A stretch of 21,129 bases of DNA, taken from Deltaproteobacteria bacterium (GTDB lineage Bacteria > Myxococcota_A > Polyangia > Polyangiales > B10-G4). This document shows, piece by piece, positions 3,732-15,448 of the stretch (positions are counted from its first letter, which is position 1; each line of letters begins with the position of its first letter). Under the pieces are notes generated by a model. It was not told where the DNA came from, made no database searches, and worked only from the letters and a program-made list of their open reading frames with translations. The stretch is from NCBI GenBank assembly GCA_003647065.1, contig QMMC01000064.1, positions 1-21,129 on the forward strand, read 5' to 3'. The position numbers and the translations under genes were made by a program.

Positions 3732-4232
3732 TCAGTCAGCGCAGGTCACGGTGATGCCGTGCGTGTGGTCGCCGGCGGACGTGGAGGTCGCCGTCACGGT
3801 GGTGCCGGCGGCGAGATCGGTGAAGTTCGCAGCCGTGATGGTCACGCTGTGACTGTGGGAGCTCGAGCCCATGATGTCGTAGGTCTTCTCGGCGCCGGCC
3901 GTGACGTCCGCAGCCGAAACCGTCATGGCGTGCGAGTGGTTCGAGCCAATCTCTGTGTTCCAGCTGCCGCAGCCGGTGCCGGTATCGCCGGCGGTGCCGG
4001 TGTCGCCGGCGGTGCCGCTGTCGGTGGGCGTGCTGCTGTCGGTGGGCGTGCTGCTGTCGGAGCCCGTGCCGCTGTCGGTGGGCGTGCTGCTGTCGGAGCC
4101 CGTGCCGCTGTCGGTGGGCGTGCCGCTATCGGTGACAGGGTCGTCGTCGCCGCAGCCGATGACTGAGACGAGTCCAACGCCGGCGCCGACCGCAACGAGG
4201 GAGCTAAGAAATTCGCGTCGTGAGTTGATCAT
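3732..4232 (-). CDS. Tat-signal lipoprotein with tandem-repeat linker and C-terminal triple-HxH domain (paralog 1)
   Basis: N-terminus MINSRREFLSSLVAVGAGVGLVSVIGCGDDD carries a twin-arginine motif plus a lipobox Cys. The linker (TPTDSGTGSDSS)n is encoded by 18-nt tandem repeats. The C-terminal ~80 aa (GCGSWNTEIGSNHSHAMTV...SHSHSVTI...DHTHGITVTCAD) has three HxH motifs bounded by two Cys. It is a close paralog of 6574-7104. The six-frame ORF extends to 4349, but the Tat-motif Met at 4232 is the better start. Confidence 0.6.
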   Translation of the reverse strand: MINSRREFLSSLVAVGAGVGLVSVIGCGDDDPVTDSGTPTDSGTGSDSSTPTDSGTGSDSSTPTDSSTPTDSGTAGDTGTAGDTGTGCGSWNTEIGSNHSHAMTVSAADVTAGAEKTYDIMGSSSHSHSVTITAANFTDLAAGTTVTATSTSAGDHTHGITVTCAD

Positions 4233-4382
4233 GGAGCCATTCTTAACGGCATCCGTGCGTTTGTGCACACATAATTGAGCATGGCGATCGAAATTAAGTT
4301 CGGCGCCAATCCCGAAGGCCCGAGATAGACCGTACCAATTTGCGGACAAGGAGAGCGCGGGCCTCGCGGCGGAACGCCGCGT

Positions 4383-6573: not shown

Positions 6574-7104
6574 TCAGGCGCCGCACGTCACCATGATCTC
6601 GTGGCGGTGACCGCCACCGCTGGTACCCGTCTGGCTCGAATCCTTCGTCACCGTGCCGCCGCCGGCGAGGGTTGTGAAGTCTCCTGCGTTCAGGCTCACC
6701 GTGTGATTGTGGGTGGCAGTGCCCATGAGGTCGTAGCTCTTGGCGACGCCGGCCGTCACATCCGCTTCCGACACCGTCATCGCGTGCGAGTGGTTCGTGC
6801 CGATGTTCACGGTGACCACCGCGCAGCTCGCCGCCATGGCCCCGTCGCTCGCATCGGCGCCGCCGCCGTCGGTCGCGCCGCCGTCGGTGCCGCCGCCGTC
6901 GGTGCCGCCACCATCTGTGCCGCCGCCGTCTGTGCCGCCGCCGTCGGTGTCGCCACCATCGGTGCCACCTCCGTCGGTGCCGCCACCATCGGTGCCGGTG
7001 TCGGCGGGGGCGTCGTCGTCGCCGCAGCCGATAACCGTGACGAGGCCGACGCCGGCGCCGACCGCGAGAAGGGAGCTAAGGAATTCACGTCGAGTACGAT
7101 TCAT
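6574..7104 (-). CDS. Tat-signal lipoprotein with tandem-repeat linker and C-terminal triple-HxH domain (paralog 2)
   Basis: N-terminus MNRTRREFLSSLLAVGAGVGLVTVIGCGDDD. The linker (GGTDG)n is encoded by 15-nt tandem repeats. The C-terminal domain (SCAVVTVNIGTNHSHAMTV...THNHTVSL...GHRHEIMVTCGA) is collinear with the paralog at 3732-4232. The ORF extends to 7140; the Met at 7104 matches the start of the paralog. Confidence 0.6.
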   Translation of the reverse strand: MNRTRREFLSSLLAVGAGVGLVTVIGCGDDDAPADTGTDGGGTDGGGTDGGDTDGGGTDGGGTDGGGTDGGGTDGGATDGGGADASDGAMAASCAVVTVNIGTNHSHAMTVSEADVTAGVAKSYDLMGTATHNHTVSLNAGDFTTLAGGGTVTKDSSQTGTSGGGHRHEIMVTCGA

Positions 7105-7167
7105 GGCGCAAAGAATAGCCGGATACGGCCCTTCGCGCATCTAATCGGGCACTTCGAGGCCTCCGGG

Positions 7168-11718: not shown

Positions 11719-13008
11719 ATGTCGAAGGATTCGTTGACGGTCACTGACAACCGGACCGGGCAGACCTACGAGCTCCCCGTCGATGATGGGACCATCCGGG
11801 CGATAGACCTGCGTCAGATCAAGACGTCCGACGACGATTTTGGCCTCATGGCCTACGACCCCGCGTACAAGAACACCGCGTCGACGAGGTCCAACGTCAC
11901 CTTCATCGACGGTGAAAAGGGCATCCTCGAGTATCGGGGCTACGGCATCGAAGAGCTCGCCGAGAAGTCGAGCCACCTCGAGGTCAGCTATCTGCTGGTG
12001 CACGGCGAGCTGCCGACGAAGACCCAGCTCGATGCCTGGACCCACGAGATCACGAATCACACCTTGGTCCACGAAAACATCCGGGAGCTGGTCGACGCGT
12101 TTCGCTACGACGCCCACCCGATGGGTATCCTGGTGAGCACCGTCGGGGCGCTGAGCACCTTCTACCCGGACGCGAAGGACATCCAGGACCCGGAGGCCCG
12201 GCGCCTCCAGATGCACCGCCTGATCGCCAAGGTCCCGACTATCGCGGCCTACGCTTATCGCCATCGCCGCGGCCTGCCCTACGTCTACCCGGACAACGAC
12301 CTCAGCTACTCCGGCAACTTCTTGTCCATGATGTTCAAGATGACCGAGCCGAAGTACAAGCCGAGCCCCGCCATCGAGAAGGCCCTCGACGTGCTCTTCA
12401 TCCTGCACGCGGACCACGAGCAAAACTGCTCGGCGTCGGCGATGCGCGCGGTCGGGTCGAGCCACGTCGACCCCTACAGCGCGACGGCGGCAGCCTGCGC
12501 GGCGCTCTACGGTCCCCTCCACGGCGGCGCCAACGAAGCCGTCGTGCGCATGCTCGGAGAGATCGGCAGCGTCAAGAACATCCCCTCGACTCTCGAGAAG
12601 GCGAAGAACGGCGAGTTCCGCCTGATGGGATTCGGCCACCGCGTCTACAAGAACTACGACCCCCGGGCGAAGGTCATCAAGAAGCTCGCCTACGAGGTCT
12701 TCGACGAGGTCGGCAAGAACCCCCTCATCGACATCGCCGTCGAGCTCGAGCGGATCGCCCTCGAAGACGAGTACTTCGCCAAGCGCAAGCTCTTCCCCAA
12801 CGTCGACTTCTACAGTGGCCTCATCTACCAGGCGCTGAACCTGCCGATGGACATGTTCCCGGTGCTCTTCGCCATCGGGCGGACGCCGGGGTGGCTGTCC
12901 CAGTGGGAAGAGATGCTGACCGACCCCGAGCAGAAGATAGCGCGGCCGCGGCAGATTTATCTCGGCGAGCGCGGGCGTAGCTACGTGCCGGTCGACAAGC
13001 GCGGGTAG
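11719..13008 (+). CDS. gltA: Citrate synthase (type II, hexameric Gram-negative type)
   Basis: A 429-aa product with canonical citrate synthase blocks (GYGIEELAE, HRLIAKVPTIAAYAYR, HADHEQNCSASAMRAVGSSH, LHGGANEAV, GFGHRVYKNYDPRA, DFYSGLIYQALNLP). A strong SD (taggagagacgagcgc) precedes the ATG. Confidence 0.95.
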   Translation: MSKDSLTVTDNRTGQTYELPVDDGTIRAIDLRQIKTSDDDFGLMAYDPAYKNTASTRSNVTFIDGEKGILEYRGYGIEELAEKSSHLEVSYLLVHGELPTKTQLDAWTHEITNHTLVHENIRELVDAFRYDAHPMGILVSTVGALSTFYPDAKDIQDPEARRLQMHRLIAKVPTIAAYAYRHRRGLPYVYPDNDLSYSGNFLSMMFKMTEPKYKPSPAIEKALDVLFILHADHEQNCSASAMRAVGSSHVDPYSATAAACAALYGPLHGGANEAVVRMLGEIGSVKNIPSTLEKAKNGEFRLMGFGHRVYKNYDPRAKVIKKLAYEVFDEVGKNPLIDIAVELERIALEDEYFAKRKLFPNVDFYSGLIYQALNLPMDMFPVLFAIGRTPGWLSQWEEMLTDPEQKIARPRQIYLGERGRSYVPVDKRG

Positions 13009-13010
13009 GC

Positions 13011-13108
13011 GTCAACAAGAAGGCGCCGCGTAGGCGGCCCGAGGCGGGAGCGCGACGCAGTCGCGCAGAGCCGACAGGCCGACCGTAGCGGCGCTGGGAG
13101 TGCGCAGT
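13011..13108. repeat. REP-like GC-rich intergenic element, copy 1 (inverted relative to copy at 15203-15447)
   Basis: The ~98 bp starting 2 nt after the gltA stop is the reverse complement of units A2+B1 at about 15250-15345 (e.g. tcaacaagaaggcgccgcgtaggcggcccgaggcgg.agcgcgacgcagtcg.gcagagccgacaggccgaccgtagcggcgc.gggagtg). It contains short GC hairpins (GCCGC-GTAG-GCGGC; CGCGAC-GCA-GTCGCG). Confidence 0.7.
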
Positions 13109-13217
13109 CGCCTGAAACGCGATACCCGGCGCGATCTGGCCTCGCTTGGGTCCCGCGTTCCAACCGACGCTGTTGCGTTCGGCTGGGCGGTGGCTCTGCT
13201 GCGGGTGAGTGTTGTAC

Positions 13218-13430
13218 GGCGACGGACACGGCGACGGATGCCGCGACGGCCTCGGACACGGCGACGGCCTCGGACACGGCGATGGACACGGACACGGACC
13301 CGGACACGGCGACGGGAACGCGAACGGGAACGGGAACGGGAACGGGAACGCGAACGGGAACGGGAACGGGAACGGGAACGGGAACGGCCTCGGCGACGGC
13401 CACGGCGACGGCCACGGCCTCGGACACTAC
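13218..13430. repeat. Hexanucleotide microsatellite (GACGGC / GGAACG units), intergenic
   Basis: About 210 bp of imperfect 6-nt tandem repeats (…ggacacggcgacggc… then (gggaacg)n, about 15 near-identical units). All six frames give low-complexity peptides (GDGHGD/NGNGNG, RERERE, TGTGTG, PVPVPV). It lies between convergent genes. Confidence 0.75.
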
Positions 13431-13440
13431 CGTCCTCGTA

Positions 13441-14034
13441 TCATGCGCCAGCTCGTCGAATGGCGATCGGTGTCTTGACCGACCCATCGAAGACGAAGCC
13501 GCCTGCCGAGGGGTGTCCCGGCCCGGCAACTTCGACGAGGGTGCCGTCCGGCGGCAGAGATCCCTCGAGTTCGACGAGCAAGAGATGGTCGTCGTCGACC
13601 TTCGCCGTGCCGGTCGCGTCGTGTACGAAGAAGACCGGCGGCCGCGCGTCGAAGGGGTCGTGGTTTGCGGCCCGATGGAGCTCGCCGCGAACACGTACGA
13701 TGCCGAGGGTCGCGTGTGCGGTCTGGACGAGACCAACCCCGTCCACCGTCGCCGATACGCGTGAGACCTTCCTGCGCGCACGCCAAGCGCTGAACGCGCG
13801 ATGCGCTCCGTGGGTGAGGGCAATCGTGACGATGACCAGGGCGGGAACGCCGAAGAGAAGTATCAGCGACCAGGCACCGAAATGCGCGTGGTGATGAGTC
13901 TCGAGTAGGTAGCCACGGGGCTGCGCTTGGAGACGGCCGACCGCGTGAAGGACGAAGGCCGGCAAGATCGTCAGACCCATCCATCGGGAGTTGACCCGAT
14001 CGCGGAGGGTCGCCGTGGGGACGTGAGAGTCCAT
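13441..14034 (-). CDS. Membrane-anchored protein (2 TM plus about 110-aa soluble C-terminal domain), unknown function
   Basis: MDSHVPTATLRDRVNSRWMGLTILPAFVLHAVGRL and FGAWSLILLFGVPALVIVTIALT are two TM helices. The start ATG at 14034 is preceded by GGAG. The six-frame ORF extends to 14262, giving alternative Mets at 14079 and 14262. The plus-strand ORF 13282-13764 is antisense and is rejected. Confidence 0.45.
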   Translation of the reverse strand: MDSHVPTATLRDRVNSRWMGLTILPAFVLHAVGRLQAQPRGYLLETHHHAHFGAWSLILLFGVPALVIVTIALTHGAHRAFSAWRARRKVSRVSATVDGVGLVQTAHATLGIVRVRGELHRAANHDPFDARPPVFFVHDATGTAKVDDDHLLLVELEGSLPPDGTLVEVAGPGHPSAGGFVFDGSVKTPIAIRRAGA

Positions 14035-14239
14035 CTTGAGAACAGTCTCCTGGTGCCGAGTTGGGTCGAGGTAGCGCATGCGGCAGGACAGTGCAGCTCG
14101 TATGCCAAGCGCGTTGTCGCGTGAGTTTGGGGCTTCCCGTTGTTTGGCGGTGGATTTCGCCCGGAGCGGTCTGTCGCTGCGAGCGTGACGCCCCGGTCGC
14201 TCTTTCTCCCGTGGGGCCGCCTCCCGCCGGCCCGGTCCC

Positions 14240-14316
14240 GATCTTCCGATCTTCATCTTCACGATCTTCAGATTCGGGGAAATCCGGACGGGGGGAGATC
14301 TGGGGGGAGATCTGGA
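14240..14316. promoter_or_regulatory. Direct-repeat motifs (GATCTTC x3; GGGGGGAGATCTGG x2) in promoter region of minus-strand gene 13441-14034
   Basis: The sequence ccGATCTTCcGATCTTCatcttcacGATCTTCagattc is followed by ggggGAGATCTGGggggGAGATCTGG. AGATCT is palindromic. The motifs lie about 200-280 bp upstream of the start codon. Confidence 0.35.
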
Positions 14317-14367
14317 CCCGGTGGACGGTGAACGGCGTCTTCCCGCTGGCCGGTGAATTCCCCCGGG

Positions 14368-15126
14368 CTACTCCCTTTCGGCGGCTGGATCGGCCGCGGC
14401 TTCATCCGGGGCCGCTGCGCCCTCCGCACTCCACTCGCGGTCGATGCGCACTTGGGCGTGTTCGAAGAGCCCCATGAGCGCCACCGATCCGAAGTCGTCT
14501 GCGATCTCGCCGAAGCTCCTCAACTCGATGGCGCCCCAGTTTCTCGAGTTCACCGGCATGGTGCAGACGGCCCGCAGCTCGGTGTCGAGCAAGAAGGCTT
14601 GTCCGTCTAGGTGGCCGGAACGATAGCTACCGCTCGCGGTCCGCACGGGAGCCAGCAGCCTGTCGACACGGATGACGGTGAGCACGACCGGCGGCTCTTC
14701 GACGGCGCCGGCGGCGAGCGCCTCTCGCAGTCGCGGCCCGTCGTCGCGCCCGAGGAAGACCCGCAGCCGGTCCGCGTGGCCAAGGGCGGGGATGGTGTGC
14801 CCGAAGCCGCGTTCCAAGACGCCGACCACGCTCGGGATGACGTCGGTGGTGAACTGCGGCGAGCGCACCATCACGAAGCGCTCCCGTCGCGGGGCGGCGA
14901 GGACTTCCGCAGGGCACCGGTCCCCGACGCTCGGGTCGAGGGCGGCGATCGCGCGGTCCCAAGCGGCGCGCGCCGGGGCGCCCGCCGCCTCGGCCTCGGT
15001 CGCCGCCGCGAGGGCCTGCTCGCGAAGTTCCGGGGATACGCCTTCCGCCTCAGCCGCCGTCTCGTCGCAGCCCGCCCAGAGCAGCATGACCAACGCGCAA
15101 CCAATGATCCGCCTCGGATTTCCCAT
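14368..15126 (-). CDS. Lipoprotein, unknown function
   Basis: MGNPRRIIGCALVMLLWAGCDE carries a signal peptide and a lipobox. The product is 252 aa with no recognisable catalytic motif. The ORF extends to 15144. Confidence 0.5.
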   Translation of the reverse strand: MGNPRRIIGCALVMLLWAGCDETAAEAEGVSPELREQALAAATEAEAAGAPARAAWDRAIAALDPSVGDRCPAEVLAAPRRERFVMVRSPQFTTDVIPSVVGVLERGFGHTIPALGHADRLRVFLGRDDGPRLREALAAGAVEEPPVVLTVIRVDRLLAPVRTASGSYRSGHLDGQAFLLDTELRAVCTMPVNSRNWGAIELRSFGEIADDFGSVALMGLFEHAQVRIDREWSAEGAAAPDEAAADPAAERE

Positions 15127-15202
15127 GGGTCGCGATGGTACCACCGACGGCGCGACTACGCGGTCGTGCGCACCTCGGACGGTTCAGTCGGGAACGGCAC
15201 GG

Positions 15203-15447
15203 CACTCCCGGCGCCGCTGCGGTCGGCCTGTCGGCTCTGCACGCCTGCGCACTCCCGGCGCCGCTACGGTCGGCCTGTCGGCTCTGCACGACTGCGTCGC
15301 GCTGCCGCCTCGGGCCGCCCTACGCGGCGCCTTCTTGTTGAGGCCTCCGTCGCGCTGCCGCCTCGGGCCGCCTACGCGGCGCCTTCTTGTTGAGGCCTCC
15401 GTCGCGCTGCCGCCTCGGGCCGCCTACGCGGCGCCTTCTTGTTGACC
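15203..15447. repeat. REP-like element copy 2 with tandem amplification (unit A about 47 bp x2; unit B about 52 bp x3)
   Basis: Unit A (cactcccggcgccgct.cggtcggcctgtcggctctgcacg) appears twice. Unit B (gtcgcgctgccgcctcgggccgcc(c)tacgcggcgccttcttgttgaggcctcc) appears three times head-to-tail, with the last copy truncated. The array lies immediately 3' of the esterase gene stop (15449). It has the same orientation relative to that gene as copy 1 has to gltA. Confidence 0.75.
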
Positions 15448-15448
15448 C

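Follow-up and report, generated by a model that had tools for sequence, protein, structure and literature searches.

A tandem array behind an esterase gene of an uncultured myxococcote is probably a local pile-up of a nested, hairpin-forming interspersed repeat

Introduction

Directly behind the stop codon of an esterase gene, two short repeats follow one another head to tail and occupy the space before the next gene. This locus raises the question of what the repeated unit is, and how the array was built. The window analyzed here is the whole 21,129-nt contig of a metagenome-assembled genome (MAG), which includes the protein RLB54822.1; homologs of its esterase and citrate synthase are found in Polyangiaceae, Sandaracinus and other Myxococcota. 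An initial annotation had read the array as a REP-like element whose second copy was expanded in place, with two independent sub-units, A and B, amplified separately.

Results and discussion

Layout of the array

Tandem Repeats Finder detected two adjoining repeats, one at 15202-15296 with a period of 47 nt (2.0 copies, 95% matches, score 176) and one at 15295-15445 with a period of 52 nt (2.9 copies, 98% matches, score 293). A second repeat search of the window gave the same two repeat families at the array (D6 and D14). The two 47-bp and three 52-bp copies that had been described are therefore real. Read on the minus strand, the order is esterase TAG, GGGT, B1, GAGGCC, B2, GAGGCC, B3, A1, A2 (Table 1), and B1 and B2, each taken with its connector, are identical over 52 nt. 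The array begins 4 nt past the esterase stop codon, and 57-75 nt of unique DNA separate it from the next gene (start 15144 or 15126), and it fills the spacer behind the esterase stop, as the initial annotation had noted. That annotation had also pointed to another copy of the element, which was found to be one B and one A behind the citrate synthase gene, 92-95% identical to the array units. The array is not CRISPR-like, as had been stated: the units abut via 6-8 nt connectors, spacers are absent, and there are no cas genes in the window.

Table 1. Positions of the repeat units and neighboring genes in the window
Feature	Position	Strand	Remarks
Citrate synthase gene	11719-13008	+	single unit at its 3' end
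Single B+A unit	13009-13103	+	directly after citrate synthase stop 13006-13008 (TAG)
Downstream lipoprotein gene	14368-15144	-	probable start ATG 15126; same strand as esterase
CGTGCCGTTCCCGAC, 15 nt	15187-15201	-	short remnant of a (CCGTTC)n hexamer tail
A2	15202-15247	-	3' arm of the outer unit; CGCAG variant, as in the L031 single unit
A1	15248-15294	-	
B3	15295-15341	-	one extra G
Inner complete unit (tag GCCT, B3, apical loop, A1)	15249-15344	-	covariance model 108 bits
B2 + connector GAGGCC	15342-15393 (B2 15348-15393)	-	5' arm of the outer unit; pairs with A2
B1 + connector GAGGCC	15394-15445 (B1 15400-15445)	-	5' arm half-unit; A partner absent in the window assembly
Esterase stop TAG	15449-15451	-	reads GTAG with the preceding G
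Esterase gene, PHB-depolymerase-like lipoprotein	15449-16483	-	array at its 3' end

B and A pair as arms of a single hairpin

B and A are not independent sub-units; they are the 5' and 3' arms of one imperfect hairpin of ~95 nt. The single copy behind citrate synthase folds with -66.3 kcal/mol (z = -3.55), and 0 of 200 shuffled sequences were as good. In the RNAfold prediction for the array, B3 is paired with A1 and an outer B is paired with A2.

Compensatory changes maintain the hairpin pairing. For a structure alignment, 34 complete units, 32 of them distinct, were taken from the window and related loci. Their consensus structure contains 26 pairs, and 98.8% of the cells of the 32 distinct units are paired; in slid registers the pairing falls to 23-48%. 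Both sides are altered in five pairs (27 cells), and the observed values were not reached by any of 500 column shuffles. One pair of the apical stem, for example, is C-G in 16 units and A-U in 15, and near the hairpin base G-C is exchanged for A-U or U-A. The consensus pairs contain 39 G-U cells and only 2 C-A cells, so the pairing is kept on the top strand, which has the same sense as the upstream gene.

Each unit of ~95 nt consists of a 4-nt variable tag, CAACAAGAA, a ~75-nt imperfect GC-rich hairpin (B, then A), and GGGAGTGC. The outermost 8-9 nt of the two sides, CAACAAGAA and GGGAGTGC, are neither complementary nor inverted repeats of each other. GTAG occurs once per arm on the same strand, inside internal loops and not at the termini. 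The half-units are all preceded by an 8-nt connector, G[C/G/A]AG[T/G]C[G/C][C/T], and GNAG is located 8 nt before most of them, where it often coincides with the upstream TAG stop.

A dispersed family with several arrangements

An exact 22-mer of B matched in 18 contigs of the metagenome Ga0164313 and gave no match in the one-genome-per-species contigs. A degenerate B pattern had three matches in the latter, which belong to unrelated phyla and were judged to be chance matches, not the element. A covariance model (R1) was built from the units, and with this model, for which the reverse strand and unrelated loci scored below 21 bits, and blastn, at least 29 full units scoring above 80 bits were found in the 18 Ga0164313 contigs and the window. 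The units thus occur well beyond the window, and further copies were present in three related MAGs or assemblies. Rfam gave no match at the gathering score in the whole window and nothing on the units at E<=1. The REP/BIME-like character and the unfamiliar sequence that had been suggested for the element are both supported, and the units form a previously undescribed sequence family within the known REP/REPIN/BIME-like class.

The arrangement BA was observed at many loci, BBAA in L001, L002, L004, L006, L010, L011, L012 and L013, and BABA in L003 and L008, while L009 carries BA plus 15 nt four times and is clearly tandem. At least three subfamilies were distinguished, in which the differences in one arm compensate those in the other. 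Many contigs of the family end inside units (L007, L011, L012, L015 and L017). Mini-units of ~40-50 nt were also seen (L014 6919-6959 and L002 3600-3648), in which the 5' part of B is joined to the 3' part of A; they keep the basal stem only and probably originated by internal deletion.

Placement relative to genes

Nearly all units are extragenic, and they are strand-specific relative to the upstream gene. With a crude gene caller based on GC3, the B end of 13 clusters was located -2 to +8 nt from the stop of a co-oriented upstream gene; once ORFs that the caller had missed were inspected, the figure rose to about 17 of 22, at distances of up to 9 nt. The modal distance from the stop to CAAC is 4 nt, and in L002, L009 and L010 the stop codon itself is provided by a C-to-T change in the first bases (TAACAAG or TAACGAG). 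The distance from the A end to the next gene is variable, ranging from 13 to more than 300 nt. The flanking genes are ordinary chromosomal ones, such as citrate synthase, porphobilinogen deaminase, an RlmN-like enzyme, thiolase and an M19 peptidase.

Small genes of PF05635 (23S rRNA intervening-sequence protein) were repeatedly struck by units. In L015 (380-760) the PF05635 gene is intact, and in L016 and L007 (945-1249) a unit lies within the coding sequence after ...DRDLG. A further unit adjoins the start of a second, inverted PF05635 paralog; the PF05635 and unit segments of L016 are at 12-106, 107-343, 344-438, 495-773 and 677-771. The BA units at these genes are regularly spaced, ~332 nt apart.

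A hexamer microsatellite, which reads (CCCGTT)n in the sense of the upstream gene, is found repeatedly at the 3' ends of genes and is often joined directly to the A end of hairpin units. It was observed in the window (13216-13427), in L001 (31-158), L008 (5964-6155), L009 (1-124 and 1098-1151), L015 (11-119), L016 (1181-1261) and L017 (1-103), and in the relatives L031 (9870-9935 and 12830-12990) and L032 (11545-11634). At the esterase site the tail is 15 nt long in the window and ~60 nt in L031. Being C-rich and G-poor, it could be a Rho-loading site or a part of the mobile unit.

Both sites are hypervariable among close relatives

Among close relatives, both unit-bearing sites of the window are hypervariable. 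L031 is a syntenic contig of a related MAG with 85-95% nucleotide identity, in which the gene order of MVP-like protein, esterase and lipoprotein is kept. Its esterase site carries one BA (100 bits) followed by a ~60-nt (CCGTTC)n tract, and its citrate synthase site is empty, reading GGC TAA ACAGCATCGCT TGAAACG. The corresponding site of the window reads GGG TAG, the 95-nt unit, GCAGTCGCC TGAAACG, and comparison of this filled site with the empty one showed no duplication of flanking bases. In L032 (GCA_030591785.1), which is 92.8% identical to the window over 11.3 kb at the nucleotide level, the citrate synthase site is occupied by B-B-B-A, a partial B and a hexamer tract. In L023, whose esterase has 90% amino acid identity, a subfamily-2 B ends the contig behind the esterase stop. 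Distant citrate synthase relatives (86% identical) have a spacer of 25-38 nt and no unit, and the esterase homologs of L024-L027 (72-78% identity) are not syntenic and carry no units.

Sites that are empty, single or multi-unit among genomes 85-93% identical indicate that the family is young and active. The units are ~97% identical between genomes whose coding DNA is only ~85% identical. Downstream of citrate synthase, L031 also has 67 nt (13065-13131, minus strand) between two CCTCGCTT direct repeats that are missing in the window at ~13140-13150; this difference is either a microhomology indel or another small insertion.

The copy number at the esterase site also varies, as had been anticipated: L031 has one BA at the orthologous site, and a second assembly of the same organism gives a different count at the same locus. 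This assembly, L033 (ENA ERZ27227323), is an independent MEGAHIT contig with 1 difference in 2856 nt outside the array. It begins within a B, and its order is B, B3, A1, A1 (the second an exact repeat), A2, which gives a minimum of 2 B and 3 A compared with 3 B and 2 A in the window. Since the two disagree, the exact numbers of half-units are not robust, and the exact duplicates are either population variants or assembly-ambiguous repeat counts. The array of the window may be a balanced B3A3, which would be a triple nesting.

The disagreement also bears on whether the array is an artefact, that is, whether short-read repeats were mis-resolved in a genome with only one unit at this place. A third contig of the locus (Logan, L034) breaks off within A2, the copies in dispute duplicate others exactly, and contig ends within units are common in the family. 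However, the non-identical core B2-B3-A1-A2 is common to both assemblies, and since an extra G marks B3 and two differences mark A2, this core cannot be a collapsed or expanded loop. Six or more independent contigs also have BBAA arrays, and L032, which is another MAG, has multi-unit arrays. We consider a pure artefact highly improbable. The check for an assembly artefact that the initial annotation had proposed thus confirmed the core and left the exact counts in doubt, and users of these MAGs should regard local copy numbers as unreliable, because the repeats break short-read assemblies.

Growth of the array

The array is probably a local pile-up of a non-autonomous, hairpin-forming interspersed repeat, similar to REPINs or BIMEs, in a small uncultured clade of Myxococcota. 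In L001, L002, L004, L006, L010 and the window, excising the inner unit together with the preceding 4 nt (99 nt) leaves a canonical outer unit of 95-96 nt; in the window, B2 and A2 rejoin as a 95-nt unit. L002 combines two subfamilies, one in the outer pair (GCCACGAGAGG with GTGGCGCC) and the other in the inner pair (GCCGCGTAGG with GCGGCGCC). Outer and inner subfamilies apparently differ in L012 as well, as judged from the flanks by eye; its outer unit was missed by the excision script. The outer pairs of L001 and L010 have diverged further than their inner pairs. The restored outer units and the subfamily differences between inner and outer pairs indicate that BBAA arrays grow by insertion into the apical loop and not by duplication of neighbors. 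At the esterase site, a resident unit B2...A2 would have received a second unit, B3-A1, in its loop, and slipped-strand or unequal recombination would then have added or removed exact half-unit copies (B1 in the window and the extra A in L033).

An alternative is that the array arose purely by tandem amplification in situ, in which slippage or unequal crossing-over multiplied the B half three times and the A half twice with no new insertion. The exact identity of B1 and B2 with their connectors over 52 nt and the exact 47-nt duplicate of the A1 module in L033 are what this process would produce; tandem reiteration of REPs and REPINs is documented in the literature, and L009 is tandem in our own set. 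However, the connector GGAGGCCT, which is typical of other family members, is missing from the single-unit state of L031, GTAGGGGT-B-GCAGTCGC-A, and cannot be derived from it, so the extra modules of the window did not come from slippage of that state alone. The restoration of a canonical outer unit by the 99-nt removal in the reconstructed BBAA loci also argues against it, and neighbor duplication cannot give inner and outer pairs of different subfamilies. We therefore regard amplification alone as unlikely, and slippage probably accounts only for the exact duplicates (B1 and B2 in the window, the two A in L033). The in-situ expansion of the initial annotation stands for these duplicates and fails for the BBAA core, which is probably a hairpin within a hairpin.

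Three observations complicate the favored history of loop insertion followed by slippage. The single unit of L031 has the extra G of the inner B3 and the CGCAG variant of the outer A2, and since it mixes features of both, the history of the array is not cleanly polarized. The unbalanced half-units (BBBA in L032 and BBBAA in the window) need extra deletion or duplication steps, or one-at-a-time addition of half-units. At nested insertions a GNAG-containing connector of 4-8 nt is repeated on both sides, whereas there is no duplication at the citrate synthase site, so a single insertion chemistry is not obviously enough.

Several simple target rules were tried and rejected. Were the 8-nt connector GCAGTCGC a general insertion target, the citrate synthase site and the loops would be accounted for, but most single copies would not. 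An IS200/IS605-style model, with insertion 3' of GNAG and GGAG as the right end, predicted junctions that were not observed. A uniform target-site duplication was rejected from the flanks of single copies and from the filled and empty pair.

Mobilization and possible function

No transposase was found by Pfam among 46 ORFs taken from the window and from the surroundings of the elements in the loci, and E. coli RayT, used as a phmmer query on 1513 six-frame ORFs from ~190 kb, gave no match. As the searched sequence holds no transposase, we infer that mobilization occurs in trans. The spread would be driven by an enzyme recognizing the folded top strand, for which our best guess, by analogy with known REP systems, is a RAYT-like transposase of the Y1/HUH type. 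The strand-specific structure, the absence of target duplication at the clean pair, the insertion into loops and the GTAG and GNAG motifs are compatible with a single-strand, hairpin-directed mechanism. The repeated GNAG connector at the nests and the unbalanced numbers of B and A fit such a mechanism less neatly.

An inserted unit would be transcribed within the 3' UTR of the upstream gene. Past the stop, the predicted sense transcript would have a leader rich in A and, from ~13 nt onward, one to three nested hairpins rich in GC, with no U-tract. Such hairpins could protect the message of the esterase or dampen readthrough to the lipoprotein gene. Read on the other strand, the hairpin with UUCUUGUUG after it resembles an intrinsic terminator; the consensus scan scored the antisense strand, where the hairpin is directly followed by TTCTTGTTG, as terminator-like, and four of the six terminator-like sites in 12900-15600 are in B units (1.4 expected). 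A stem with TTCTTGTT was present only antisense to the esterase and citrate synthase genes, and no such terminator signal was found on the sense strand. A scan of the same region for sigma-70 promoters found none. By analogy with the REPs of E. coli, message stabilization, attenuation of readthrough, a block of antisense transcription and interference with translation termination are all plausible effects. E. coli REPs located up to ~15 nt from a stop reportedly lower translation via ribosome stalling and tmRNA.

The units might instead be regulatory modules of gene 3' ends that the host selects and that recombination or gene conversion homogenizes, the array tuning the ratio of esterase to lipoprotein expression. 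Such modules could be bidirectional terminators, mRNA-stabilizing hairpins or structures that stall ribosomes near stops. The precise, orientation-specific placement directly behind stop codons, the conserved structure with its G-U bias on the sense strand, the higher identity of units than of coding DNA between genomes, and the excess of antisense terminator-like sites in B units are in line with this explanation. However, close relatives have empty sites with the gene intact, the sense strand is without a U-tract, and units break small PF05635 coding sequences and insert into one another, which is selfish behavior. Host selection as the origin of the family therefore appears improbable to us. 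It is also rather doubtful that the units represent a distinct, non-RAYT hairpin mobile element of marine Polyangiales-like Myxococcota, in which GNAG-tagged half or whole units, often with a (CCCGTT)n tail, would be added at stops and apical loops and either be moved by an unrecognized enzyme or have been adopted by the host as a genome-wide 3'-end module for termination or translation termination.

Comparison with known systems

Of the known repeats, the family is nearest to the REPs, REPINs and BIMEs associated with RAYT, such as those of Pseudomonas fluorescens SBW25 and E. coli and the GTAG-REPs of Stenotrophomonas. Like these, the family consists of dispersed, many-copy, mostly extragenic GC-rich imperfect palindromes (18 metagenome loci and three MAGs or assemblies) that form conserved two-arm doublet hairpins of ~70-110 nt with a species- or clade-specific sequence. 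Both are located mostly at gene 3' ends and sometimes supply the TAG stop; G-T pairs favor one strand, and filled and empty sites, here at the citrate synthase 3' end, differ without target-site duplication. Both also form clusters, either through tandem reiteration of units with their flanks or through insertion within or beside resident copies, and the higher-order clusters with short connectors found here (BBAA, BABA, (BA)x4, BBBA and BBBAA) are nested and not strictly alternating. REPs of the GTAG type often provide TAG stops, and their clusters are tandem reiterations with flanks (PMC3733652).

The differences are that the sequence searched here holds no RAYT gene, that GTAG is internal to the arms and not terminal, that the arms are not inverted copies of one REP and have their own unpaired tails (CAACAAGAA and GGGAGTGC), and that the arrays are nested B..B A..A instead of alternating in REP orientation. 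The host also differs: in the literature searched, we found no REP or REPIN reported for Myxococcota, so the family would add a REPIN/BIME-like repeat to this phylum.

Hairpin MITEs (Correia/NEMIS, ERIC and Nezha) are likewise non-coding elements of ~100 nt with inverted symmetry that are interspersed, co-transcribed with their neighbors and capable of nesting. Unlike them, the present units show no target-site duplication at the citrate synthase pair, have ends that are not inverted and have no known parent IS. Neither this pair nor the single-copy flanks show the target-site duplication expected of a MITE, although the nests do repeat the 4-8 nt GNAG connector. No insertion sequence was seen in the loci examined. 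Insertion sequences that target REPs (IS1397/ISKpn1 and ISPpu9/10 of the IS110 family) also aim at a resident palindromic repeat, its loop included, whereas the inserted DNA here is another copy of the repeat, 95-99 nt long and gene-free. Intrinsic or bidirectional terminators share the intergenic GC-rich stem followed by TTCTTGTTG on one strand; here, however, the U-rich tract is antisense to the gene whose stop the unit abuts, and the element is mobile and repeated at 92-100% identity. An integron attC or cassette array was rejected because the ends CAACAAGAA and GGGAGTGC have no complementary core sites, no integrase was found, and copies follow housekeeping genes in both orientations.

The array and its family do not overturn current understanding. 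With their clean nesting, the arrays provide a simple system in which to study how hairpin repeats target one another. Being 0-9 nt behind stops and between co-transcribed genes, the units would, if transcribed, be candidate elements for controlling message stability, readthrough or translation termination on a wide scale.

Other features of the window

Directly upstream of the esterase gene, 16511-18640 on the minus strand encodes a protein of 709 amino acids with MVP_shoulder (2.5e-28), Vault_3 and Vault_4 domains, and a gene with major vault protein domains is at the same position in L031 and L023. Elsewhere in the window, the segments 3792-4267 and 6646-7139, in neighboring minus-strand ORFs, are paralogous (74-76% identical), and each contains a coding tandem repeat (3990-4134, period 18/36, and 6854-6997, period 15) that encodes a low-complexity linker. 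The ORF at 13441-14262 on the minus strand has a lower third-position GC (0.74), no Pfam match and a predicted membrane helix. No other gene separates it from the microsatellite and the convergent citrate synthase gene, and L031 has RCC1 repeat and glyoxalase genes at this place.
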